This document shows, piece after piece, positions 10,196 to 59,200 of a stretch of 63,017 bases of DNA. The translations under genes were made by a program, and so were the position numbers. A model generated the notes under the pieces. The model did no database searches. It had not been told where the DNA came from and saw nothing but the letters and a program-made list of their open reading frames with translations. Source of the DNA: an uncultured Peptococcaceae bacterium (GTDB taxonomy: Bacteria > Bacillota > Dehalobacteriia > UBA4068); the NCBI GenBank assembly GCA_949289995.1, contig CASEQE010000046.1:1-63017 (forward strand), written 5' to 3'. How positions within the stretch are numbered: position 1 is the first letter of the stretch; each line of letters begins with the position of its first letter.

Positions 10196-11287
10196 CTAGG
10201 GATTAGAGGTTAATTTTCCTTTTTCCACATGCCACTGGCGTCCTCGGGAAAAAGAAAAATGGGTGGCGGTAAGAAAGGTTTGGGTTTTGCCCATGGTCAA
10301 GCGCAAAAGATTTTTTTGCCGCTGACCGTCCAATTCGCTTAATACGTCATCTAAAAGCAAAACCGGGTATTCGCCTCGTATTTCCTTAGCGATGGCCAAT
10401 TCCGCCAATTTTAAAGCCAAAGCGGCGCTACGTTGTTGTCCCTGGGAAGCATAAGCCCGGCTGGAAACGCCGTCAATATCGATGGCCAAATCGTCCCGAT
10501 GCGGCCCGCATAAGCTTATCCCCCGGCATAATTCTCCTCGCCGCATACGCTCTACTTGCGCGGTCAATTGCCGCCTTAGGCTTTCTTCATCCATTTGTTC
10601 TTCATCTCCAGACGCCAAAGCATAACTTTGATAATGCAAAGTCAATTTTTCCCCTTGCTGCAAAGATTCCTGCACATTTTCTACAATCGGCCGTAATAAA
10701 CCAATCAATTGCAAACGTCTCTGGGTAATTTTTGCCGCCAAATCGATAAATTGATAGTCCCATAGCGGCAATACATCTTCCCTTTGTTGTTTTAAACATT
10801 GATTGCGTTGTTTTACCACTTGATTATAACGAACCAATAAAGAAAAATATTCTGGATACAATTGACTCATCTGCCGGTTGATATAGCGGCGGCGCAAAGT
10901 CGGCCCGCCTTTAATCAGCAGCAAATCCTCCGGCGCAAAGGTTACTGTATGAAAACGACCGATAATTTCGTTAAGTTTGCGACAAACCTGCTGGTCTATT
11001 CGCCATTTTCTGCGTTTCTGTTTGTTTACCGCTGCAGAAAGGGAAAAGGATTCGTTTTTACTTTCTATATGTCCTTGCAAATAAAAATAATCTTTTTCCC
11101 ATTGTATCAATTCTCCTTCGCCGCAGCCGCGAAAAGAAGAAGCCATGGATAAATAACCAATCGCTTCCAGCAAATTGGATTTTCCTTGTGCGTTTTTACC
11201 GGTAATCAGGTTCAAATTCGGATCGAATTCCGCCTGTTGCTGATGATAGTTGCGAAAATTTTCTATATACAGACGGTTAATTTGCAT
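10196..11287 (-). CDS. recF: DNA replication/repair protein RecF
   Basis: NFRNY, GKNAQGKSNLLEAI, GPHRDDL, SQGQQRS, LLLDDVLSELD; directly downstream of dnaN. Confidence 0.96.
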   Translation of the reverse strand: MQINRLYIENFRNYHQQQAEFDPNLNLITGKNAQGKSNLLEAIGYLSMASSFRGCGEGELIQWEKDYFYLQGHIESKNESFSLSAAVNKQKRRKWRIDQQVCRKLNEIIGRFHTVTFAPEDLLLIKGGPTLRRRYINRQMSQLYPEYFSLLVRYNQVVKQRNQCLKQQREDVLPLWDYQFIDLAAKITQRRLQLIGLLRPIVENVQESLQQGEKLTLHYQSYALASGDEEQMDEESLRRQLTAQVERMRRGELCRGISLCGPHRDDLAIDIDGVSSRAYASQGQQRSAALALKLAELAIAKEIRGEYPVLLLDDVLSELDGQRQKNLLRLTMGKTQTFLTATHFSFSRGRQWHVEKGKLTSNP

Positions 11288-46388: not shown

Positions 46389-47531
46389 TTATACGAATTC
46401 TACAAAAACCCGATTGGCTAGGAACAAACCCCGTCGGGTCAAACGCAACCAAGAGCCTTCCTCTTGCAGCAGGCCGTTTTTTTTCAGCTTTTCCAGGGCC
46501 GGGCCATAGTATTGATCCGGCCGTATGCCGTAGCGTTGGGCGAAAGCTTGTTGATCGATACCCTGGATTAGCCGCAGGCCCAGGAACATCGCTTCCCCCA
46601 GCACTTGTTGCGGGGACAAATATTCCTCTTCCGCCAGGGGTAAGCGGCCTTGCTTCACGGCCTGCCAGTAATCGGCCAGACTTTGGTGATTGGCAAAACG
46701 GCGGTTGCCGGCGCAGGAGCAGGCCGCCGCCCCCAGACCCAGATAGTTTTCCCGCCGCCAGTAGACCTGGTTGTGGCGGCTTTCCCGGCCCGGTTGGGCA
46801 AAATTGGCGATTTCGTATTGTTTGAGGCCGGCTTTTTCCAGGGCATCTATCGCGTAGGCCAACATGGCGGCGGCTTGGTCTTCTTCCGCCGGCGCCAAAC
46901 GGCCCTGGGCTGCCAATCGTCCCCAAGGGGTTTCCGGGGATAAGCTTAGGCCGTATAGGGAAAGATGCTGCGGCTGCAAAGCCAGGGCCTGAGCCAAATC
47001 TGCTTGCCAACCGGCCAGGGTTTGTCCGGGCAGGCCGTAGATCAAATCCAAACCCAGATTATCAAAACCGGCCTGCCGTGCCGCGGCCACTGCCTGTTGG
47101 GTTTGCTTTCCGTCATGCCCCCGGCCCATGGCTTGCAACAGGCCGCGGTTGAAGCTTTGCGCTCCTAGGGATAGACGGTTTATCCCCCCTTGCCGCCAGC
47201 GGAATAGTTTTTCCTCCGTCACGGTTTCCGGATTGGCCTCCAGGGTGATTTCCGCCGCCGGCGGTAAGAATTGCAACAAGCGGCTGATTTCCGCCGCCGG
47301 CAACAGGGAAGGGGTGCCGCCGCCAATATATATGCTGTGGCAGCGGCTAAAATCCCCTTGCCGCTGCCAGAGCCGCCATTCCGCCAACAGGGAATCGATA
47401 TATGGATGAAACAACGGTGAATCCGCCGTGGCGGGATAGGAAACAAAATCGCAGTAATTGCATTTGCGCAGGCAAAAAGGTATATGTATATAGATTGCCG
47501 CAAAATGATCCGCGTCTTGTTTGATGAACAT
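46389..47531 (-). CDS. hemW: Radical-SAM heme chaperone HemW
   Basis: YIHIPFCLRKCNYCDF, GGGTPS, EANP, HNQVYW (HNxxYW); start MFIKQ at 47531. Confidence 0.88.
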   Translation of the reverse strand: MFIKQDADHFAAIYIHIPFCLRKCNYCDFVSYPATADSPLFHPYIDSLLAEWRLWQRQGDFSRCHSIYIGGGTPSLLPAAEISRLLQFLPPAAEITLEANPETVTEEKLFRWRQGGINRLSLGAQSFNRGLLQAMGRGHDGKQTQQAVAAARQAGFDNLGLDLIYGLPGQTLAGWQADLAQALALQPQHLSLYGLSLSPETPWGRLAAQGRLAPAEEDQAAAMLAYAIDALEKAGLKQYEIANFAQPGRESRHNQVYWRRENYLGLGAAACSCAGNRRFANHQSLADYWQAVKQGRLPLAEEEYLSPQQVLGEAMFLGLRLIQGIDQQAFAQRYGIRPDQYYGPALEKLKKNGLLQEEGSWLRLTRRGLFLANRVFVEFV

Positions 47532-47702
47532 TGTCTTTGGAACATCTCCCTTTTGGGAAATTGCCGGCGGCTTACGCCGCCTTATACTTGCATATTTCGC
47601 CGCCGGAGAGCGTTTTCCCCTTGGCCGGCAAAAGAAATCCCCGTAGCGGGATGTATAAATTTCCGGGGACGGTTTTTTTTGCCGGCTTCTTGGTTTTCCC
47701 CC

Positions 47703-47731
47703 TTGCTTTTTTGCTTTGCCCATAGTATAAT
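47703..47731 (+). promoter_or_regulatory. sigmaA promoter for the aro leader/operon
   Basis: TTGCTT-17 bp-TATAAT. Confidence 0.72.
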
Positions 47732-47765
47732 ACAAGATATTCGTGGATAAGGAGGGCGGAATTTT

Positions 47766-47930
47766 ATGAATAAAAACAGTAGTTTCATGCAGACGGCGTT
47801 TTCCGCCCATACTTTCAACTTTTATTACTTTACCGGCGTGGTTCGCTTTTTTGCGTACCGCTTTTTTGCGCATGGCTTGGCTTGCCGTTCTTTCCGTTTG
47901 CATAGGATTCCGCCGCCGGTATCGTGTTAA
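47766..47930 (+). CDS. Phe/Tyr-rich leader peptide, 54 aa (below the ORF-track cutoff)
   Basis: AAGGAGG RBS at 47749-47755; MNKNSSFMQTAFSAHTFNFYYFTGVVRFFAYRFFAHGLACRSFRLHRIPPPVSC. Confidence 0.72.
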   Translation: MNKNSSFMQTAFSAHTFNFYYFTGVVRFFAYRFFAHGLACRSFRLHRIPPPVSC

Positions 47931-47944
47931 CCTATAGGCATGAT

Positions 47945-47978
47945 ATAGGGGTTCCTCAAACGGGAACCCCTATTTTTT
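47945..47978 (+). terminator. Attenuator terminator upstream of pheA
   Basis: ATAGGGGTTCC-TCAAACG-GGAACCCCTAT-TTTTT between the leader ORF and pheA. Confidence 0.85.
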
Positions 47979-48031
47979 ATTGTCTCTTGCCCTGAGAAAA
48001 AGAAAATTATAGAATAGAGAGGTAAAGGAAT

Positions 48032-49120
48032 ATGAACGAATTGGAAAAAGCACGGCTGGAAATCGACGAAATCGACGGACAAATGGCCAAATTGTTTGAA
48101 CGCCGTATGCAGGCCGGGGAACAGGTGGCCCGTTATAAAACAGAGCATGCCCTGCCGGTTTTGGATCAGGTGCGGGAAAAAGAGATTCTGGACGGCCGTC
48201 CGGCGCTGATTGGCGACAGCGTGCTGCGGGAATATTATACCCAATTCTTACGGGAAACCATGCGCCTTTCCCGGGAATATCAGTCCCGGCTGGTGCAGGG
48301 AATGAAAATAGCCTATAGCGGCGTGGAAGGGGCTTTCGGACATATTGCCGCCAAAAAGCTGTTTCCCGGCGCCCAATGCACGCCTTGCGGCGATTTTGCC
48401 GACGCCTATCAGGCGGTGGAGAAGGGGGATTTCGATTGCGCCGTGTTGCCGGTGGAAAATAGTTATGCCGGGGAAGTGGGCGTGGTGATGGATTTGATTT
48501 TCTCCGGCTCTTTGTATATTAACCAAATGATCCTTTTGGATATCGTTCACAATTTGCTGGCCAATCCCGGCGCCACTTTGGACGGAATCAAAACCGTGGT
48601 CAGCCATCCCCAGGCGCTGGCGCAATGCGATGCATTTATCAAAGCCCACGGCTGGGATACCATTGCCTATGCCAATACCGCTTTGGCCGCCAAATATGTA
48701 CGGGAAAGCGGCGATCCAACCGTGGCGGCCATTGCTTCGGATGAAACCGCCCATATTTTTGGCCTGCATGTTTTGGAAAGCCATATTAACGCCAGCAAAA
48801 GCAATGCCACCCGCTTTGCCGTGTTTTCCCGGGCTCACAACTTGCCGTCGCCTTCCAGCAAAAACGAGAACGAGCATTTTATTTTGGTGTTCACCGTGCG
48901 CAACGAAGCCGGCGCTTTGGCAAAAACTTTGAATATCATCGGCGCCCACAATTTCAATATGCGGGCTTTGCGTAGCCGGCCGATGAAAGGATTGCTGTGG
49001 AATTATTATTTCTATATAGAAGCGGAAGGTAATATTAGCAGCCAAAACGGCCAGGATATGCTGCGGGAATTATCCGCTGTCTGCGCCCGTTTGCGTTTGG
49101 TGGGTACTTATCGTTATTAA
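48032..49120 (+). CDS. pheA: Bifunctional chorismate mutase/prephenate dehydratase
   Basis: AroQ-type CM (RLEIDEID...R...K...D..RE); PVENS, SHPQALAQC, NATRF; ACT domain. Confidence 0.93.
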   Translation: MNELEKARLEIDEIDGQMAKLFERRMQAGEQVARYKTEHALPVLDQVREKEILDGRPALIGDSVLREYYTQFLRETMRLSREYQSRLVQGMKIAYSGVEGAFGHIAAKKLFPGAQCTPCGDFADAYQAVEKGDFDCAVLPVENSYAGEVGVVMDLIFSGSLYINQMILLDIVHNLLANPGATLDGIKTVVSHPQALAQCDAFIKAHGWDTIAYANTALAAKYVRESGDPTVAAIASDETAHIFGLHVLESHINASKSNATRFAVFSRAHNLPSPSSKNENEHFILVFTVRNEAGALAKTLNIIGAHNFNMRALRSRPMKGLLWNYYFYIEAEGNISSQNGQDMLRELSAVCARLRLVGTYRY

Positions 49121-49206: not shown

Positions 49207-50217
49207 ATGAAGATTCGGGTAGATTTGGGCCGGGACGGCTATGATATTCTGTTGCAACCGGGAATTTTGTCCCAGGCCGGCCAGTACTTACAGCTGCAAC
49301 GCAAGGTTTTGTTGGTAACCGATGACGGCGTTCCGCCCGCCTATGTGGAGCAGGTTGCCGCCTGTTGCCGGGAGCCGGCGGTGGTTACCCTGCCCCAGGG
49401 GGAGGCCAGCAAAAGCATGGAATCCTATCAGCGGCTGCTGGCTGTGCTGTTGGAAAAAGGTTTTGGCCGGGGGGATTGCGTGACGGCGGTAGGCGGCGGC
49501 ATGGTAGGGGATTTAAGTGGTTTTGCCGCGGCTACCTATATGCGAGGCGTGGATTTCTACAATATTCCCACCACATTTTTATCCCAGGTGGATTCTTCTA
49601 TCGGCGGCAAAACCGCCGTGGATTTTCAAGGGGTAAAAAATGCCGTAGGCGCTTTCCATCAGCCGAAAAAAGTGTTGATTGACCCGGAAGTTTTGCAAAC
49701 CTTGGACAAAAGACAATTTCACGCCGGGGTAGCCGAATCCATCAAAATGGCATTGACTTTTGATGCGGATTTGTTTCGCCTGTTATGCGACGGTAAAGAG
49801 GATTGGGGCCGCTGGCAGGAAATCATCGGCCGTTCTTTGCTGGTGAAAAAAAAGGTGGTGGAAAGCGATCCTCAGGAAAAAGGTTTGCGGCGGGCGTTGA
49901 ATTTTGGCCATACTGTAGGGCACGCCATAGAAAGCCATGCCCAGGGTAAATTGCTTCATGGGGAATGTGTGGCTTTGGGTATGACGCTGATGTGCGGGCC
50001 GGCGGTTTTGCCCCAATTGGAAAAAGCATTGGCAAAATATGCTTTGCCCCGGCATATTCAGGCTACGGCGGCGGATTTGATGCCGTATTTGCTGCATGAT
50101 AAAAAAATGGATGCCGGCGGCTATGTGACCGGCGTATATGTGGAACAAATCGGCCAGTTTTCTTTTGTACGTTGGTCCGCCCAACAATGGCAAGCTTATT
50201 TGGAGGAACGGTTATGA
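49207..50217 (+). CDS. aroB: 3-dehydroquinate synthase
   Basis: GEASK, GGGMVGDLSGF, PTT..SQVDSSIGGK, LNFGHT, HGECV. Confidence 0.95.
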   Translation: MKIRVDLGRDGYDILLQPGILSQAGQYLQLQRKVLLVTDDGVPPAYVEQVAACCREPAVVTLPQGEASKSMESYQRLLAVLLEKGFGRGDCVTAVGGGMVGDLSGFAAATYMRGVDFYNIPTTFLSQVDSSIGGKTAVDFQGVKNAVGAFHQPKKVLIDPEVLQTLDKRQFHAGVAESIKMALTFDADLFRLLCDGKEDWGRWQEIIGRSLLVKKKVVESDPQEKGLRRALNFGHTVGHAIESHAQGKLLHGECVALGMTLMCGPAVLPQLEKALAKYALPRHIQATAADLMPYLLHDKKMDAGGYVTGVYVEQIGQFSFVRWSAQQWQAYLEERL

Positions 50218-51329
50218 AAAATACCTTTGGCCATAGCGTTTCTTTGACGCTTTTCGGTGAAAGCCACGGCCCGGCTATCGGCGGGGTGATTGATGGTCTG
50301 GCTCCGGGCATACCCGTAGACCCGCAGGCGATTCGCCGCCTGCTGGACCGGCGGCGGCCATCTACCGCTTTGGATACCTCCCGGCGGGAGGCGGATGATT
50401 TTCGTATACTTAGCGGCGTGTTTCAGGACAAAACCACCGGCACCCCTTTGTGTATTGTTTTGCCCAATCAGGATCAACGCAGCGGGGATTATGAAAAAAA
50501 CCGGGGGTTGGCCCGTCCTTCTCATGGGGATTACGCCGGGTTTTGCAAGTATCACGGCTATGAGGATTATCGGGGCGGCGGCCATTTTTCCGGCCGGGTT
50601 ACCGCGGCGTTGACGGCGTTGGGCGCAATACTACTAAGCGCTTTGTCCGGAATCGGCGTGAGCCTAGGCACCCATATTTTGCGTTGCGGCGGCGTGGAAG
50701 ACCGGGATTTCGTTGATCTAAAGCAGGATATCGCCTGGCTAAATCAGGCTTTTTTCCCGGTGTTGGAGGAAAGCCGCGGGGAACAAATGGCCGCGGCGAT
50801 TCTTGCCGCCAAAGAGGCGGGGGATAGCGTTGGCGGCGTGGTACAAACCGGGGTGATCGGTCTGCCGCCGGGTTTGGGAGAGCCTTGGTTTGACAGCGTA
50901 GAAGGTTTGCTTTCCCATGCCTTGTTCAGTATTGGCGGGATCAAGGGCGTGTCCTTTGGCGCCGGCTTCCAATTGGCTGAATGCCGAGGCAGCCAGGGCA
51001 ACGACGCCATGCGTATGGAGCAAGGCCGGGTGATTACCCTTACCAACCGCAACGGCGGCGTCAACGGCGGCATTACCAACGGTATGCCCGTGCTGTTTCA
51101 ATGCGCGGTAAAGCCCACGCCTTCCATTGCCCGGGAACAGCAGACGGTGAATTTTCTCACCGGGGAAAATGCAATTTTGCGCATTGGCGGCCGGCATGAT
51201 CCGGCGATTATCCGCCGCATTTGTCCGGTGGTGGACAGCGTTACCGCTTTGGTGCTTTGCGATTTGTTGGCGCAGCGTTTTGGCACGGACGTGTTTACGA
51301 AGGGGATAGCGGTATGCAATATGGATTGA
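50214..51329 (+). CDS. aroC: Chorismate synthase
   Basis: FGESHG, RPSHGD, GGGHFSGR, GDSVGG, KPTPSI, GRHDP. Confidence 0.95.
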   Translation: MKNTFGHSVSLTLFGESHGPAIGGVIDGLAPGIPVDPQAIRRLLDRRRPSTALDTSRREADDFRILSGVFQDKTTGTPLCIVLPNQDQRSGDYEKNRGLARPSHGDYAGFCKYHGYEDYRGGGHFSGRVTAALTALGAILLSALSGIGVSLGTHILRCGGVEDRDFVDLKQDIAWLNQAFFPVLEESRGEQMAAAILAAKEAGDSVGGVVQTGVIGLPPGLGEPWFDSVEGLLSHALFSIGGIKGVSFGAGFQLAECRGSQGNDAMRMEQGRVITLTNRNGGVNGGITNGMPVLFQCAVKPTPSIAREQQTVNFLTGENAILRIGGRHDPAIIRRICPVVDSVTALVLCDLLAQRFGTDVFTKGIAVCNMD

Positions 51330-52555
51330 TCGGCAAACGCCTGGGGCATAGTTTTTCCCAGGAAATACATGAAAGCATAGGCGATTATGGCTATCAATTG
51401 CAGGAATTGGCGCCGGAACAGCTGGCGGATTTTTTGCAACGGCGGCAATTTTGCGGGATTAACGTAACCATTCCCTATAAGGAACAGGTGATTCCTTTTT
51501 TGGACGTCCTTTCCCCTGCCGCCGCCCGCATCGGCGCTGTCAATACCATAGTCAACCGGGATGGAAAATTGTGGGGCTATAATACGGATTATGCGGGAGC
51601 TTTGGCCTGGATTCGCCGCCGGCAGGTAAATTGGCAGGGACAAAAGTTGTTGTTGTTGGGCAGCGGCGGCACCGCCAAAACCATGACCGCCGTAGGCGAG
51701 GCATTAGGGGCGGAGCCGATTCTTATCGTTTCCCGCAGCGGCCGGCAGGGAACGGTCACCTATGCGCAGGCGGCGGCGGAACATGGCGACGCCAAGGGGC
51801 TGATTAACGCCACCCCGGCGGGGATGTTTCCCGACAGCGAAGGGATGGCGGTGAATATAGCTTATTTTCCGCATCTTACGGCGGTATTTGATGCGGTATA
51901 TAATCCGCTGCGTACCAATTTGATCCTTGCCGCCGGGCAGCGGGGCCTGACGGCCTGCGGCGGTTTGTATATGCTGGCGGCCCAGGCGGTTTATGCCTCC
52001 CGGCTGTTTTTAGGCCAAGAGGAAGCGCCGTCGGCGGAATATATTGAAGAAGTATATCGCGGCGTACGCCGGGCCAAAGAAAATATAGTGCTGATCGGTA
52101 TGCCCTCCAGCGGTAAAACTTTGGTGGGAGGATTGCTGGCGGAAAAAACCGGCCGTCCCTTTTTCGACGCCGACGTTCAGTTGCAGCAACGGCAAGGGGA
52201 AACAGCGGATCAAATCATTCGTCGCCAGGGAGAAGCGGCGTTCCGGCAAATGGAAAAAGAAATCCTTCGCCAGCTGTCGGAAAAAACCGGTTGCATAATC
52301 GCTACCGGTGGCGGCGCGGTATTGGATGGGGAAAACATGGGGCGTCTGCGCCGCAACGGCCGGCTGTATTTTCTGGATCGGCCTTTGGCTCTATTGACCC
52401 CTACCGCCGACCGGCCCCTTTCCGCCGACCGCCAGGCCATGGAGGAACGTTATCGGCAGCGCTATCCTTTGTATTGCGCCGCCGCCGATGTGCGTATCCC
52501 CGCCGGCGAAGACGGGGAAAGGGTATGCAGGAAGATTTTGGAGGATTTTGCATAA
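51314..52555 (+). CDS. aroE: Fused shikimate dehydrogenase-shikimate kinase (AroE-AroK)
   Basis: HSFS..IH, NVTIPYK, GAVNT, NTDY, then GMPSSGKT, GEAAFR..E, ATGGG, RP. Confidence 0.92.
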   Translation: MQYGLIGKRLGHSFSQEIHESIGDYGYQLQELAPEQLADFLQRRQFCGINVTIPYKEQVIPFLDVLSPAAARIGAVNTIVNRDGKLWGYNTDYAGALAWIRRRQVNWQGQKLLLLGSGGTAKTMTAVGEALGAEPILIVSRSGRQGTVTYAQAAAEHGDAKGLINATPAGMFPDSEGMAVNIAYFPHLTAVFDAVYNPLRTNLILAAGQRGLTACGGLYMLAAQAVYASRLFLGQEEAPSAEYIEEVYRGVRRAKENIVLIGMPSSGKTLVGGLLAEKTGRPFFDADVQLQQRQGETADQIIRRQGEAAFRQMEKEILRQLSEKTGCIIATGGGAVLDGENMGRLRRNGRLYFLDRPLALLTPTADRPLSADRQAMEERYRQRYPLYCAAADVRIPAGEDGERVCRKILEDFA

Positions 52556-53013
52556 TGCGGATATTGGTAATCAACGGGCCCAATTTGAATTTATTGGGTA
52601 TACGGGAACCGGATATTTACGGCAAAGAAGATTATAATAGCCTGCTGCGGCAAATTGCCGCTTATGCCGAGGAAATCGGCGTGGATGTGCAATTTTTTCA
52701 GTCCAATCATGAAGGGGCGATTGTCGACGCCATTCAAGACGCTTATTTTCAGGGAATAGACGGTATTGTTATCAATCCTGCCGCCTATACGCATACCAGC
52801 GTCGCTATTGCCGACGCTTTAAAGGCGGTGTCTCTGCCCGGGGTGGAAGTGCATATTTCCCCGGTGGAAAAACGGGAGTCCTTTCGCCAAATCAGTTATG
52901 TGCGGGATTGGGCTTTGGCCACGGTTTCCGGCAGGGGATTTGCCGGCTATTTGCAGGCTTTGGATATTTTAAAAGCGCATTTGGAGGGCAAAGCATATGC
53001 AAGTGGAGATTAA
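52555..53013 (+). CDS. aroQ: Type II 3-dehydroquinate dehydratase
   Basis: INGPNLNLLGIREP.IYG, QSNHEG, NPAAYTHTS, EVHIS; TAATG coupling to the upstream gene. Confidence 0.95.
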   Translation: MRILVINGPNLNLLGIREPDIYGKEDYNSLLRQIAAYAEEIGVDVQFFQSNHEGAIVDAIQDAYFQGIDGIVINPAAYTHTSVAIADALKAVSLPGVEVHISPVEKRESFRQISYVRDWALATVSGRGFAGYLQALDILKAHLEGKAYASGD

Positions 53014-54205
53014 AGCGGGCCATCCCCGGGGGACGGTGGCGGCGCCGCCTTCCAAAAGCTATGCCCATCGTTTGTTGATCGGCGCAGCTTTGGCGGCAGG
53101 GGAAAGCGCATTGCAGGGGATAGCCATGAGCCAGGATGTGGAAGCGACTTTGCGCTGTTTGGCGGCGCTGGGCGCCGGTTACCGGCTGGAAGGCGATGCA
53201 TTGTATGTTTTGGGCTGCGGCGGCAAGCCGGCGGCCAAGGAACCGTTGCTTTGCGGCGAAAGCGGCAGCACCCTGCGATTTCTTTTGCCAGTGGCCTTGC
53301 TGGGCGGCGGGGAAATCCGCTTTTGCGGTACGGAAAGGTTGATGGCGCGCGGCGTCGGCGTGTATCAGGAAATTTTCGCTCCCCAAGGGGTTGATTTTTG
53401 TCAGAAAAGCGATACACTGCAAGTGCGAGGCGCTTTGAAATCAGGGGTTTACCGGCCCCGCGGGGATGTGAGTAGTCAATTTATCTCCGGTTTGTTGTTT
53501 GCTTTGCCACTATTGGCGGAGGATAGCCGGGTAGAAATGCAGCCGCCGGTAGAAAGCCGGGCTTATATCGGCCTGACTTTGGACGTATTGCGGCGTTGCG
53601 GCATATCCATCCTGCCCCAGGGGGAAAACGCTTTCGCCGTTGCCGGCGGACAGCATTATCAGGGCGGATGTTTTTCGGTGGAAGGGGATTGGTCCAACGC
53701 CGCTTTTTTCTACGCGCTGAACGCTTTAGGCGGGGAAGTGCAGGTGACCGGTTTAAATCCCCATAGTTTGCAAGGAGATCGGCTATGCGTGGAAATGCTG
53801 GCGGCTTTGGAAAAACCCGGCGCGGAGTTGGATTTATCCAATTGCCCTGATTTGGGCCCGGTGCTTTTTGCCGTGGCCGCCGCCAAACATGGCGCGGGTT
53901 TTTATGGCACCAAACGTTTGGCGATCAAAGAAAGCGACCGGGTGCAGGCGATGATGGAGGAGTTGGCTAAATTTGGCGTGGACGGGGTAATCGGCGAAAA
54001 TAGCGTGGAAATCAGCGGCGGGAAATTTTCCCCACCTTGCCAGCCTTTGCAGGGACATAACGATCATCGTATCGTTATGGCTTTGTCGGTGTTGGCCGCC
54101 TTTACCGGCGGCATAATCCAAGGGGCGGAGGCGGTGAACAAAAGTTTCGGCGGTTTTTTCCAGGCTCTGAGCCAACTGGGATTGGAGGTGTGCTATGGAG
54201 ATTGA
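52997..54205 (+). CDS. aroA: EPSP synthase
   Basis: PPSKS..HR, ESGSTLRF, SSQFISGLL, EGDWS, KESDR, DHRIVM. Confidence 0.95.
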   Translation: MQVEIKAGHPRGTVAAPPSKSYAHRLLIGAALAAGESALQGIAMSQDVEATLRCLAALGAGYRLEGDALYVLGCGGKPAAKEPLLCGESGSTLRFLLPVALLGGGEIRFCGTERLMARGVGVYQEIFAPQGVDFCQKSDTLQVRGALKSGVYRPRGDVSSQFISGLLFALPLLAEDSRVEMQPPVESRAYIGLTLDVLRRCGISILPQGENAFAVAGGQHYQGGCFSVEGDWSNAAFFYALNALGGEVQVTGLNPHSLQGDRLCVEMLAALEKPGAELDLSNCPDLGPVLFAVAAAKHGAGFYGTKRLAIKESDRVQAMMEELAKFGVDGVIGENSVEISGGKFSPPCQPLQGHNDHRIVMALSVLAAFTGGIIQGAEAVNKSFGGFFQALSQLGLEVCYGD

Positions 54206-55049
54206 TAAAAGCCAAAAAATACTGGTGGTGGGGCTGGGCTTGATCGGCGGCAGCTATGCCCAGGCCCTAAGCGACCAAGGCTATGAAGTGGGCGCCATCA
54301 CCAAGGAAGCGTCGGATTTGCAATTTGCTTTATCCCGGGGAATGATCCGCCATGGCCATACCCAGGTGGATGGGGATTATGTAGGCGGTTTCGACGTGGT
54401 GATTTTTGCCCTTTATCCCCATGTGTTTTTGCAATGGCTAAAAGACTATCAACATTTGTTGAAGCCCGGCGCTTTGCTAACCGACGTCACCGGCGTAAAA
54501 GTGCCGGTGGTCTACCCGGTGCAGCAAATGCTACGGCCGGATGTGGAATTTATCGCCGCCCATCCCATGGCCGGCCGGGAATGTTGCGGCGTGGTCAATG
54601 CCGACAAAGCCATTTTTAACGACGCCAATTATATTGTCGTCCCAACGGCGGCCAATCGCCAGGAGGCTGTGGAGTGGTGCAAGTCTTTAGGCCGGGTATT
54701 GGGGTTTAAGCGTATTTCCGTTCTTTCTGCGGAAGAACATGACCAGATGATCGCTTTTCTTTCCCAACTGACCCATTGTATTGCCATTTCCCTGATGACT
54801 TGCAACAATTCTCACCATCTGAAGGATTATACCGGCGATTCTTTTCGCGATTTAACCCGCATTGCCAAAATCAACGAAGAAATGTGGAGCGAATTGTTTC
54901 TTTTGAACAAAGAGGAACTTTTGCGGCAAATGGATATTTTTATCGACAAGTTTATGCTGTTGCGCAATGATTTGGCAGCGGAAAATGTAACGGAAATAAA
55001 GAATATGATGCGGCAATCTACCGCCAATCGAGCATATTTTGATCAATAA
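54195..55049 (+). CDS. tyrA: Prephenate dehydrogenase
   Basis: GLGLIGGS, DVTGVK, HPMAG, HDQ..A..SQLTH, FRDLTRIA. Confidence 0.93.
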   Translation: MEIDKSQKILVVGLGLIGGSYAQALSDQGYEVGAITKEASDLQFALSRGMIRHGHTQVDGDYVGGFDVVIFALYPHVFLQWLKDYQHLLKPGALLTDVTGVKVPVVYPVQQMLRPDVEFIAAHPMAGRECCGVVNADKAIFNDANYIVVPTAANRQEAVEWCKSLGRVLGFKRISVLSAEEHDQMIAFLSQLTHCIAISLMTCNNSHHLKDYTGDSFRDLTRIAKINEEMWSELFLLNKEELLRQMDIFIDKFMLLRNDLAAENVTEIKNMMRQSTANRAYFDQ

Positions 55050-55064
55050 AGGAGCGTTATCGCG

Positions 55065-56096
55065 ATGATTAATATGGAATTCAAACGCAAATTGCCCACT
55101 CCCCAGGAAATTATCAGTATGTATCCATTATCGGAAAGCCTGGCCCGGCAAAAAGAAAAAAATGATGAAGAAATACAAAAAGTGTTCCGTGGAGAAAGCG
55201 ACAAACTGATTTTGATCATCGGCCCTTGTTCCGCCGACCGGGAAGATTCGGTTTTGGACTATATATCCCGTTTGCGGGGGGTACAGGAGCAGGTGAAGGA
55301 TAAAATCCTCATTATTCCTCGGATTTATACCAATAAACCCCGCACCACCGGCGCCGGTTATAAGGGTATGTTGCACCAAACCGACCCCAACGGTTCCCCG
55401 GATATGCTCAAAGGGCTGATTGCCATTCGCAAACTGCATATCAAATCCTTGGAACAAACCGGGTTTTCCGGGGCGGATGAAATGCTCTATCCGGAAAATC
55501 ACCGCTATTTGGCGGATATTTTGTCCTATGTGGCGGTAGGCGCCCGTTCGGTGGAAAACCAGCAGCACCGGCTTACCGCCAGCGGCTTGGATTTGCCGGT
55601 GGGTATGAAAAACCCCACCAGCGGCGATTTGTCGGTGATGATCAACGCCATCAATGCGGCGCAACACGGCCATACCTTTGAATATGGCGGCTGGGAAGTG
55701 GCCAGCAAAGGCAATGCTTTGGCCCATGCGGTGCTTCGGGGATATGTGAATCAACACGGGCAATCCCATCCCAATTATCATTATGAGGATTTGATTTTGC
55801 TTTGTCAGGCCTACAGCGACAGTGGGCTGAAAAACCCGGCGGTGATTGTAGATGTAAATCATGCCAATTCCGGCAAAAAATGGTGGGAACAAACCCGCAT
55901 TGCCAAAGAAATTCTGCATAGTATGCGCCATTCGCCGGATGTAAACCGTTTGGTGAAAGGCTTAATGATCGAATCCTATATCGAAGACGGCTGCCAAAAG
56001 GCGGAAGAGGGGATTTACGGCAAATCCATCACCGATCCCTGCTTGGGCTGGGAAAAAACTCGACGGCTGATTCTGGATATTGCCGATTTGCGTTAA
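55065..56096 (+). CDS. DAHP synthase, class I-alpha
   Basis: IIGPCS, KPRTT..GYKG, VGARS, KNPTSG, HANSGK, MIES, SITDPC. Confidence 0.93.
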   Translation: MINMEFKRKLPTPQEIISMYPLSESLARQKEKNDEEIQKVFRGESDKLILIIGPCSADREDSVLDYISRLRGVQEQVKDKILIIPRIYTNKPRTTGAGYKGMLHQTDPNGSPDMLKGLIAIRKLHIKSLEQTGFSGADEMLYPENHRYLADILSYVAVGARSVENQQHRLTASGLDLPVGMKNPTSGDLSVMINAINAAQHGHTFEYGGWEVASKGNALAHAVLRGYVNQHGQSHPNYHYEDLILLCQAYSDSGLKNPAVIVDVNHANSGKKWWEQTRIAKEILHSMRHSPDVNRLVKGLMIESYIEDGCQKAEEGIYGKSITDPCLGWEKTRRLILDIADLR

Positions 56097-56201: not shown

Positions 56202-56233
56202 AAAAGGGCGCCCCTTTTCGGGGGCGCCCTTTT
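56202..56233. terminator. Bidirectional terminator between convergent genes
   Basis: AAAAGGGCGCCCC-loop-GGGGCGCCCTTTT. Confidence 0.87.
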
Positions 56234-56252
56234 GATCGTTTTTTCGATTCGT

Positions 56253-59200
56253 TTATTTTACGATATTTTGGCAAAAATGCATGAGTATTTGCGCCGCTTG
56301 GGCCCGGGTGGCATAGCCTTGGGGATTGAGTGTGCCGTCGCCCATACCGCTGATCAACCCGGCGTTTACCGCCCAGGCCATGCTTTCCACAGCCCAGGAG
56401 GAAATGGCTTCATAGTCGGCAAATTCCCGGATCGCCATGCCGCCTTGGCTGACGTCATAGGCCTTATACTGGGCGTAGCGGTAAAGGATAGCCGCCAGCT
56501 GCTCCCGGGTGATGGAATCCCCAGGGCCGAACAGGCCGCCGCCATAGCCTTCCACGATATGGTTTTGGTTAGCCCAGATGATGGCAGGTTGATAATAGCT
56601 GCCCTGGGCCACGTCGGTAAAGGGGCAGGCGGCGGTGATACCCGGCTGGCCTTCCAGGCGATAGAGAATGGTAACGATCATCCCCCGGCTGATGGCCAGA
56701 TTCGGGCTAAAGCTGGCGTTGCCGGTGCCGTTCATCAGGCCGTTTTCATAGACGAAGCGAACCGCCGGGGCATACCAGGCGTTTTCCGCCACGTCGGCAA
56801 AGGGTGAAGCGTTTTCAGCGGCTGTCGGGACGAAGCCCGCTTTGACGGTGGCTTGGCCGTCGGGCATACGGAAGGTATATACGCCGTCGCCTTGGTTGCT
56901 GAGTTTTAGCTCGTCGCCGTTTTTATCGCAAACGGATATTTCTTCCAGAGCATAGCCTTGGTCGGCTTTAACGGTCAGGGTAATGGTTTCACCGGCTTCC
57001 GCCCGTTGGGGAGAGGCGGTGATTTTACCGTGTTCCATATGGGTTACCCAGACGATATCTCCCCGGTAGTCGCTGGAAGAATCGTCCCTTTGAGGCGGCA
57101 CATAGGTGTTCAGATCGCTAGGGCGCATGCTGGGTTGGGTGTAATATTCATCGCTACCGCTGGTTAAATCCCGTATTTCATCGGGGATTTGCGTTTGGTT
57201 GGGCTGACCACCGCCCCAATAGTTTTTGGCAACGTTCACGGGGCTGATACCGGAAACAATTTCCAAATAGCTGTCCGGAGAAATATTGTTTTGGGAAAAT
57301 ACTTGCGGTGCGTCATAGAATTTGATACGGCTGCCTTGGCTAAACGTATTGCCGGAGATGGTTTGCGTGGGATGCATGATGTTTAGCTTACCGCCGCTGA
57401 CAGTGTTTTCGGTAAATTCCGTATGTTGCGGATAGAGAATGGCTACATAGTTGCAACCGCTAAATTGGCACTGGGAAACAATCAGATTTTCCAGTTTGGA
57501 TTTGCCGCCGCTGTTGGCGATAGGCTCGCTGCCGATGGCGTATTGACAATTTTCAAATTGGCAATCGTAGATGGAGACGGTTTCCTCCTCGTTGTCGCTG
57601 CCGCCGGCGAAAATGCCGTAGCTCACATGGTTGCTGCCGATGATTTTTACATGGACAAAGCGGTCGCCGCCGGCGGCGTTAAAGGCACGGAACCCTTGGG
57701 CGGCGGATTCTTTGTCGATAGCCGACAAATCCACGATTAGATTTTGGAACAAATTGTCGCCGTTGGAATGGAATACGGCGTCATGGTTTTCCTTGCTTTC
57801 AATGGCGTTTACTTTCAGGGTATGGTTTTTGCCGTCCAGGACGATGCCTTGTACGTTCCAAATCATTTGCCATACGTCCGCCTCCACGTCGTTGAGCATG
57901 ATCACGGTTTGTCCCGGTTGGGCGGTTTTCACCGCGGTGGCCAGGGAGGCGTATTTTTGATCCTCCAGTTGCCCTTGCCAAGCCGGGGTATTGTCTTGAA
58001 TATGGTTTTTCCCTTGCGTAGCGGCGTTATGATAAACGTACAAATCTTTGCAGGAACCGTTGACGGAAATGTTTTCCCAGCGGGTGGAGGATACGTTGTT
58101 AAAAATGGTAATGTCATGCTGGGGAATATCGCCGATCGCGGTTTCGGTAAATTGCAGATTGCCGGCGATACCGGCGGCGAAAGTGGCGCCGGAAATGGCG
58201 GCGGCGGCGTTTTCATTGCCGGTAACCATAATGGCGTTATAAACGGTGCCGATGATGCCGCCGCCGTCGTTGCCGCCTTGGATAGCGCCTAGATTGCGGT
58301 TATTGGACACTTGGATGATTTCTTTGCGGGGATAGTCGCTTTCGCTGCCGCTATAGCGTACCCAGCCGACGATGCCGCCGGTGCCGTAGGCGTTGGAATC
58401 GTTGACGATATCGGCCTGGTTTTCACAATCGGTTATGCTGCCGACGTTTTGTTGTTCGCCGGCAATACCGCCGACGCTAAAACCCGCGCCTTTCACGGCG
58501 GCGCTGTTTAGGCATTGGCTGACATCGGCTGCGGATAGACCGACGATGCCGCCTACTACCGTTACGCCGAGGATTTCGCCATGGTTTTCGCAGCCGCTGA
58601 TACGCATATCCGCGCCGTTTTCGCTATAATAGGCGGCGCCGACAATACCGCCTACATTGCCGCTGGCGCTGGTGCCGGTAATCTTGGCTTCGTTGATACA
58701 ATCGATGATGGCGCCGTCGGCGATCAGCCGGCCGGCGATGCCGCCGTTGCCCCGGGCGGCGGAAATGGCGCCGGAAACGGAAATGGCGTTGGCCTGGGCG
58801 CCGTTGACCATCAAGCCGATGGCGCCGCCTACGCATTGGCCGTTAGCTACTTGGATGTTTACCTGGGATAGATGAAGATTTTTCACCGCGCCCCCGTCTA
58901 CCACGCCGAAAAGGCCGATGGCGTCGTTGACGTTGGCCGCGTCGGCGGTAATGGTTAGCTGGGATATGGTTTGGTTATTGCCGTCGAACGTCCCTTGGAA
59001 AGCGGCGCCGCTATAGGTTTTGCCGTTGCGGGCTCCGTCGCCGATCGGCGTCCATTCCTGGCCGGAAAGGTTATAGTCCGCCGCTTCCAGCCGGATATGT
59101 AGGCCGGCATAGGTTACGCCTCGATTGACGCTATCCCGGAAAGCCGCCAATTGCGTCACATCGGCAATACGATAGGGATCGTTGGCGCTACCGCTGCCGC

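Follow-up and report, generated by a model that had tools for sequence, protein, structure and literature searches.

How does a gut bacterium of the Clostridia type adjust the expression of an operon for the shikimate, phenylalanine (Phe) and tyrosine (Tyr) pathways to the supply of its end products? Bacillota are usually described as sensing amino acids via T-boxes, TRAP or riboswitches. The question is raised by a stretch of 63,017 nucleotides (nt) from an uncultured Peptococcaceae bacterium (contig CASEQE010000046.1 of assembly GCA_949289995.1), here called the window, in which a short open reading frame (ORF) rich in Phe and Tyr codons precedes pheA, the first of eight genes. We propose, with a probability of roughly 0.85, that this leader belongs to the classical trp/pheA type of ribosome-mediated (leader-peptide) transcription attenuators. 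The core of an earlier sequence-only reading, a ribosome-dependent Phe/Tyr leader-peptide attenuator in front of the pheA-aro-tyrA operon, is supported by comparative and folding evidence. What carries the proposal is the anatomy of the leader, its conservation, the covariation within a hairpin termed P1 and the energetics of the competing RNA structures; a response to Phe and Tyr, and its timing, would be the predicted consequence.

The positions of all parts are collected in Table 1. Phe and Tyr make up 13 of the 54 leader codons and 10 of codons 17-34, and the translation agrees with the peptide put forward earlier. The ORF, which is predicted to be translated, is preceded by the strong ribosome-binding site that had been claimed for it, and an intrinsic terminator does lie 14 nt beyond its stop codon and 5' of pheA. 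The stem of this terminator is G+C-rich and constitutes the top terminator-like site of the region; because the upstream gene is divergent, it ends no upstream gene. The promoter had been described as a consensus promoter, which is true of the -10 hexamer but not of the -35 hexamer, which falls below the threshold of the consensus scan, so that the scan did not list the promoter. The suggestion that three terminal proline codons (PPP) could add EF-P-sensitive pausing is without comparative support as far as the leader sequences tell: the sister species (locus L031, pheA 86% identical) has PLP, and no such motif occurs in any of the other leaders. The PPP codons fall within a base-paired segment of the RNA.

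In order to follow the leader in relatives, pheA loci were taken from 40 related genomes, 80 species-representative genome contigs and 80 metagenome contigs. A leader was scored when an ORF rich in F, Y or W codons (at least 5 aromatic in 10) was followed by a terminator no more than 130 nt past its stop. Within 1500 nt upstream of pheA this combination is present in 39 of 78 usable species-level loci as opposed to 3 of 78 reverse complements; with a stricter threshold of at least 6 in 10 the figures are 29/78 and 1/78. When the distance is limited to 600 nt, the counts are 33/78 versus 2/78 at species level, 63/79 versus 10/79 for the metagenome contigs (many of them near-identical) and 3/29 for the related-genome set, one of these three being the window itself and one doubtful. 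A density control on 107 loci (L002 was omitted as a duplicate of L031 and two loci were too short) found short ORFs with at least 7 aromatic codons in 10 within 400 nt upstream of pheA in 19 forward sequences, compared with none of the 107 reverse complements and none of the 107 shuffled sequences. Among the distinct candidate leaders of relatives, 67 of 72 have a terminator within 130 nt of the stop. Four loci (L003, L049, L077, L106) passed the numeric filter while the features of the family were missing; these doubtful leaders were kept in the 600-nt counts, in the terminator count just given and in the count of antiterminator complementarity below (24/45), and were dropped from the frame test, the Shine-Dalgarno (SD) count and the count of equilibrium switches in 63 leaders.

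The aromatic enrichment is specific for the reading frame. In 50 distinct leaders aromatic codons amount to 21.0% in frame (549/2609), compared with 11.4% and 14.0% in the other two frames, which carry 133 and 116 stops; in the long ORFs of the window's own genome the value is 8.6%. The conservation of F/Y codons upstream of pheA, named as a test by the sequence-only reading, is thus borne out. In the sister species both promoter hexamers, the SD site, P1, the antiterminator and the terminator are preserved, and the leader frame begins at the equivalent position (with GTG in place of ATG) and is equally long; its first 16 codons are heavily diverged without acquiring a stop. A locus from a more distant genus (L004, pheA 52% identical) presents TTGACA-17-TATAAT, an SD site, a 21-codon ORF with 8 aromatic codons and a terminator of -19 kcal/mol. 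No relative above 62% pheA identity was obtained in the metagenome search, and within-genus covariation therefore rests on the one sister sequence. The leader is covered by RNA-library contigs (three metatranscriptome libraries, two studies), two of which bridge the terminator into pheA; the uncovered stretch 47420-47750 and most of pheA are uninformative in this respect. Read by eye from the table, the variants in these contigs comprise two synonymous changes in the ORF, two that replace a Watson-Crick pair of the model by G.U, and one that is non-synonymous. As a separate observation, a single Trp codon is present in the leader of the sister species (F-N-W-Y-S-F, against F-N-F-Y-Y-F in the window), such that all three aromatic amino acids are represented in it.

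Folding of the leader RNA yields an antiterminator in which the 5' arm of the terminator is sequestered in full, together with the loop and 5 nt of the 3' arm. Since the structure is composed of several helices, it was tested by folding the whole segment, which gave -31.1 kcal/mol (z-score -3.83); none of 200 shuffled sequences was as stable. It takes the place of two small pairings that had been assigned to the antiterminator from the sequence, ATAGGATT (47902-47909) with AACCTAT (47929-47935) and CCTATA (47931-47936) with TATAGG (47944-47949); at -4.3 kcal/mol each, these are absent from every minimum free energy (MFE) structure computed and were rejected. A further pairing from the same source, that of region 1 with 47914-47921, was recovered in the MFE whenever the region is free of ribosomes. 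It is a perfect complement of 8 base pairs (bp; -13.7 kcal/mol) with a z-score of -3.94 that none of 200 shuffles matches, and 6 of the 8 bp are kept in the sister species; folding supports this pairing as an anti-antiterminator. The SD/start region (47755-68) also pairs with 47899-47913 (14 bp, -16.5 kcal/mol) and dominates the untranslated MFE. We do not rely on this pairing as an element, only about 6 bp of it surviving in the sister species (sequences read by eye). In that species an analogous antiterminator forms before the 3' arm of the terminator is made (-18.6 to -22.3 kcal/mol), and the terminator wins at equilibrium.

Table 1. Positions of leader parts, operon genes and flanking features within the window
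Feature	Position	Strand	Details and basis
Putative leader promoter	47703..47731	+	TTGCTT -35 (47703-08, 3/6), 17-nt spacer, TATAAT -10 (47726-31, 6/6); sequence
Shine-Dalgarno site AAGGAGGG	47749..47756	+	GGAGG 10 nt 5' of ATG; sequence; kept in L031
Leader ORF, 54 codons, ATG start	47766..47930	+	10 Phe, 3 Tyr, 0 Trp; regulatory cluster codons 17-34 (47814-47867)
Region 1 (TACCGGCG), anti-antiterminator strand	47831..47838	+	pairs with CGCCGGTA (47914-47921); duplex energy, MFE, shuffles
Hairpin P1 and U-tract	47838..47867	+	47838-46/47853-61; loop UUUUUU equals two Phe codons; UUUUUU 47862-67 equals two Phe codons
Antiterminator	47891..47966	+	47891-47900/47957-66; 47904-07/47953-56; 47912-14 and 47916-17/47948-52; 47919-28/47937-46; folding
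Intrinsic terminator	47945..47981	+	12-bp stem 47945-56/47962-73, loop UCAAAC, then TTTTTATT; -19.2 kcal/mol (47945-47973); kept in L031
Possible weak internal promoter	47987..48015	+	TTGCCC-17-TAGAAT; scan; L031 has TTGCCC-17-TAAAAT
pheA, chorismate mutase, prephenate dehydratase and ACT	48032..49120	+	Pfam CM_2, PDT, ACT
aroB, 3-dehydroquinate synthase	49207..50217	+	Pfam
aroC, chorismate synthase	50172..51329	+	Pfam; ORF limits as listed, true start perhaps later
aroE-aroK fusion in one ORF, shikimate dehydrogenase N-domain and shikimate kinase	51221..52555	+	Pfam
aroQ, type II 3-dehydroquinase	52561..53013	+	Pfam DHquinase_II, E 3.8e-54
aroA, EPSP synthase	52997..54205	+	Pfam
tyrA, prephenate dehydrogenase	54195..55049	+	Pfam
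DAHP synthase gene	55065..56096	+	Pfam DAHP_synth_1
Terminator-like hairpin at operon end	56202..56233	+	14 bp, 9 G-C
Divergent radical-SAM/HemN_C gene	46389..47531	-	likely start ATG 47531; ORF open to 47903

Five RNA parts would make up the switch: region 1, P1 (47838-61) with its U-tract, region 2 (47891-47928), region 3 (47937-66) and region 4 (47962-73). Transcription would start from the promoter at about 47703-47731 and the 54 leader codons would be translated. With charged Phe- and Tyr-tRNA in plentiful supply, the ribosome would trail the polymerase up to the stop codon (47928-30) and cover region 2; regions 3 and 4 would then form the terminator, and transcription would end at the T-run (47974-78). 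A ribosome stalled at the Phe/Tyr codons (19-34) would mask region 1 and leave region 2 free to form the antiterminator with region 3 before region 4 is made, so that the polymerase would continue into all eight genes. If the leader is not translated, region 2 would be held by region 1 (or by the SD/start region) and the terminator would form. The 5' half of the antiterminator stops exactly at the leader stop codon and would therefore be covered by a terminating ribosome.

Such a sequence of states was modelled by folding only the RNA 3' of the ribosome while the A-site was moved codon by codon (downstream-only model). The predicted terminator probability is 0.96 for A-site positions up to codon 18, where the region 1 pairing is in the MFE, 0.50-0.69 at codons 20-31, where the antiterminator is the MFE, 0.82-0.88 at codons 33-35, 0.30-0.35 at codons 36-38 and again 0.96 from codon 48 to the stop. 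In this model only one of terminator and antiterminator could form at a time: a ribosome stalled on the regulatory codons would leave the antiterminator region open, and one that has reached the stop would cover it. Among the relatives, subfamily B (e.g. L055) exhibits the full textbook three-state pattern. A switch at equilibrium is found in 32 of the 63 leaders of the family, and antiterminator complementarity is significant (p<=0.05 versus shuffles) in 24 of 45 distinct leaders, with a mean z-score of -2.0.

P1 is a hairpin located within the ORF itself. In the window it contains one U.U mismatch and reaches -10.7 kcal/mol; across leaders its energy ranges from -7 to -15.8 kcal/mol. In a gap-free alignment of 20 leaders 94.4% of the cells are paired, three of the nine pairs show changes on both sides, and covariation exceeds that of all 500 shuffles. 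When the pairing partner is slid along the same 20 leaders, pairing drops to 18-53%. Seen codon by codon, the wobble position of Arg changes together with the first position of the Ala, Ser or Thr codon that faces it. The peptide core A-V-R-F-F-A/S-Y-C/R, which the window has in common with many relatives, mirrors P1 at the coding level; the apparent conservation of the peptide is thus due to RNA pairing. In subfamilies B and C a hairpin read by eye occurs at the same place in a different register, and a U-rich tail, likewise read by eye, follows P1 in about 17 of the 20 aligned leaders. The trp leader has a pause hairpin, and by analogy P1 with its U-tract would most likely make the polymerase pause until the ribosome has caught up. 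More tentatively, and in our view with the odds against it, P1 and the U-tract could serve as a checkpoint for translation coupling within the leader ORF, be it a pause site or an early intrinsic terminator melted only by an arriving ribosome, which would render the whole element a two-stage attenuator. Stage one would then ask whether a ribosome follows and stage two whether it stalls on Phe/Tyr, and the same U-rich codons would act both as termination signal and as amino-acid sensor.

A number of observations weigh against an attenuator of the classical type. With the ribosome at the F/Y codons, the downstream-only model itself lowers the terminator probability no further than to about 0.5, and a stall at codons 33-34 keeps the terminator favoured (0.86-0.88). 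When the whole leader was folded at equilibrium with the ribosome footprint alone masked, no switch was seen and the terminator prevailed with 0.86-0.97 at every ribosome position, because segments 5' of the ribosome, including the 14-bp match of the SD/start region, can hold region 2. In the relatives, 31 of the 63 leaders, that of the sister species among them (minimum 0.91), are devoid of an equilibrium switch. Complementarity between regions 1 and 2 is significant in only 10 of 39 leaders, and a single-duplex test of the antiterminator of the window is not significant (z-score -0.69). By the criteria used, no leader is recognized at about half of the related loci, the RNA evidence consists of contigs, which show neither ends nor levels and may include DNA present in the libraries, and the sister species shares the possible promoter that lies 3' of the terminator and 5' of pheA. 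As the equilibrium switch is missing in about half of the leaders, the model needs kinetic, i.e. co-transcriptional, control; the mechanism would in this respect be like the classical systems.

Could the choice between terminator and antiterminator be set by something other than a ribosome, namely by a tRNA binding to a divergent T-box, a small-molecule riboswitch or an RNA-binding protein, with the ORF being incidental? P1 and other parts are indeed conserved as RNA with covariation, RNA structure rather than the peptide explains the A-V-R-F-F-A/S-Y core, and the organism uses T-boxes elsewhere: the T-box model (RF00230) finds four sites in its genome, one of them above the cut-off. The same model does not match the leader, however, and no Rfam family, T-box included, was found at 20 related loci. 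Searches of the window at the gathering score and of 47300-48300 at E-values up to 10 returned nothing relevant, the best weak matches being terminator-like small RNA models; neither search matched the pheL leader (Phe_leader, RF01859), and the Leu/phe leader (RF01743) had no match in the window or at the 20 related loci. Furthermore, the ORF is open and its in-frame start is preceded by an SD-like sequence in 45 of the 50 distinct leaders (in the other five GGAGG lies a few bases further off), the aromatic enrichment is confined to this very frame, and the aromatic run shifts and changes its sequence among subfamilies and yet stays aromatic. We therefore regard a ribosome-independent switch as improbable.

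Just as improbable is that the small ORF stands alone as a gene, encoding a hydrophobic peptide and ended by a terminator of its own, the pheA operon being transcribed from its own promoter at 47987-48015 without any attenuation. The promoter-like site, which the sister species retains, speaks for such an arrangement, as does the long spacer with a promoter-like palindrome that separates terminator and pheA in other subfamilies. Transcripts starting 5-9 nt past TAGAAT would, on the other hand, begin at or after the pheA ribosome-binding site GAGAGG, which argues against a main role for this promoter in the window, although it is possible that it provides a minor route. Nor does the peptide behave like an independent gene product: it ranges from 21 to about 76 residues and varies freely in sequence outside the RNA-paired core and the aromatic run, its ORF is in every case located 5' of pheA or the pheA operon and in the same orientation, and antiterminator complementarity ties the 3' part of the ORF to the terminator. 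That a T-rich untranslated region with an open frame came to lie beside an ordinary terminator by chance is hardly conceivable, even though the region is T-rich and the other two frames reach 11-14% aromatic codons, given the reverse-complement and shuffle controls, the conservation across dozens of species and a divergent upstream gene that leaves the terminator nothing upstream to end.

The organism appears to possess a second element of this kind. On the minus strand of contig C10 of its genome (about 10566-10676, locus L191) a 36-codon ORF with 8 Val codons in 10 is preceded by a TTGACA-17-TATAGT promoter and an SD site and followed, 18 nt past its stop, by a strong terminator and then by ilvB, ilvN, ilvC and ilvD (Pfam). 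Judged by this arrangement, the Val-rich leader in front of ilvBNCD is a candidate second leader-peptide attenuator of the same design. Leaders for Trp, His, Thr or Leu did not turn up in a crude scan of the whole genome, which does not show their absence; a Leu-rich match on contig C14 was set aside because it falls within a long ORF.

All eight genes that had been assigned to the operon were confirmed by Pfam and belong to the shikimate, Phe and Tyr pathways. Within the operon there is no convincing internal terminator, 15 terminator-like matches standing against 14.1 expected by chance. In the divergent gene upstream, the radical-SAM/HemN_C Pfam domain starts only at residue 138 of the 504-residue ORF, the N-terminus of which was compared with that of the sister species by eye. 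This ORF runs about 124 codons past its likely start, antisense across the leader ORF, and an automatic gene caller could over-extend it and thereby hide the leader. Downstream of the operon, a 191-residue ORF (56232-56807, plus strand) finds no match in Pfam; a 1398-residue ORF of the other strand spans it, and it is probably no gene.

Some related loci are organized differently. In seven of them (L038, L041, L055, L059, L072, L074, L085) a spacer of 170-260 nt separates the leader terminator from pheA, and in the last 60 nt before pheA it ends in a conserved palindrome, TTATAATCA-N4-TGATTATAA, which overlaps a TATAAT box and resembles a second promoter with an operator for a DNA-binding regulator; the window is without it. 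A gene of about 235 residues is located between the aromatic leader and pheA in L056, L057, L071, L082 and L091, and a gene of about 400 residues lies directly 5' of pheA in L033, L034 and L037 (pheA 64-65% identical), where no leader was seen in the DNA examined. Homologues of pheA with 52-55% identity occur in contigs labelled Bacteroidales, Rikenellaceae or Muribaculaceae (L087, L097-L099, L101, L103, L104, L106-L109). Of these only the doubtful L106 passes the leader criteria, none has a convincing aromatic leader, and gene transfer with gut Clostridia or errors in binning could account for them.

Taken as a family, Phe/Tyr leaders stand before pheA in dozens of organisms that the record titles label as uncultured Clostridia from gut and rumen. 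Although its principle is textbook knowledge, the family is new: it is uncatalogued in Rfam and unnamed in protein collections, where the leader peptide of the window is present without a name. It offers regulatory annotation for genomes that so far have none and a clean case of a covarying RNA hairpin accounting for what looks like conservation of a peptide, and it indicates that classical attenuation is more widespread in Bacillota than the catalogues show. A compact Phe/Tyr-responsive switch may also be of use in the engineering of anaerobes. Candidate attenuators in some low-GC Gram-positive bacteria are said to have been reported by Vitreschak and colleagues in 2004. For a Phe/Tyr leader peptide in Clostridia no description was found in the open-licence literature searched, supplements not covered.

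Among known systems the pheL-pheA attenuator of E. coli (Gurvich et al., 2011, PMC3082878; Zurawski, 1978, and Gavini and Pulakat, 1991, as cited in PMC11802643) is one of the closest in design. Like the element described here it consists, in the passages of these sources used for comparison, of a short leader ORF holding a run of Phe codons, a terminator and a competing antiterminator directly upstream of the gene for chorismate mutase/prephenate dehydratase, and it follows the logic, here predicted, that stalling leads to readthrough. In the same excerpts pheL is assigned to gamma-proteobacteria and 'only a few' others (Bacteroides, Desulfobacterium), not to Firmicutes (PMC3082878). The leader in the window differs in being 54 codons long, far above the 'short' pheL genes of that account, in mixing Tyr with Phe codons, in carrying a conserved hairpin and U-tract inside the ORF, in preceding eight genes rather than pheA alone and in belonging to a Clostridia-type member of the Bacillota.

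With respect to its codons the leader resembles aroR, located upstream of the aroF operon of Corynebacterium glutamicum (Neshat et al., 2014, as summarized in the review PMC11802643), which likewise combines Phe and Tyr codons (Phe-Tyr-Phe), a shikimate-pathway operon and ribosome stalling. From this summary the resemblance is functional only. The aroR leader comes from an Actinobacterium and contains three regulatory residues compared with 13 in the window. According to the same review only limitation for Phe, not for Tyr, affected transcription in C. glutamicum; for the leader studied here, sensing of both Phe and Tyr cannot be shown from sequence.

Within the Bacillota, the Leu/phe leader motif RF01743, predicted in Lactococcus lactis only (Weinberg et al., 2010, PMC2864571, as far as the quoted part of that work goes), is likewise a candidate leader-peptide element for Phe (or Leu) genes. 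His leader peptides have been predicted before paralogues of hisS/hisZ in bacilli (Naville and Gautheret, 2010, PMC2965389); the passages of that paper considered here state that, up to that time, Proteobacteria and Actinobacteria were the only groups with demonstrated leader-peptide systems, and they count leader peptides in Firmicutes as a notable finding. Like the His leaders, the leader in front of pheA would be a 'regular' leader peptide in place of a T-box in Firmicutes, for another amino acid, other genes and another lineage than those named there. With the T-boxes themselves, the usual amino-acid sensors of Bacillota, it would share the output, a choice between terminator and antiterminator ahead of amino-acid genes, while the sensing would be accomplished by a translating ribosome instead of the direct binding of a tRNA.

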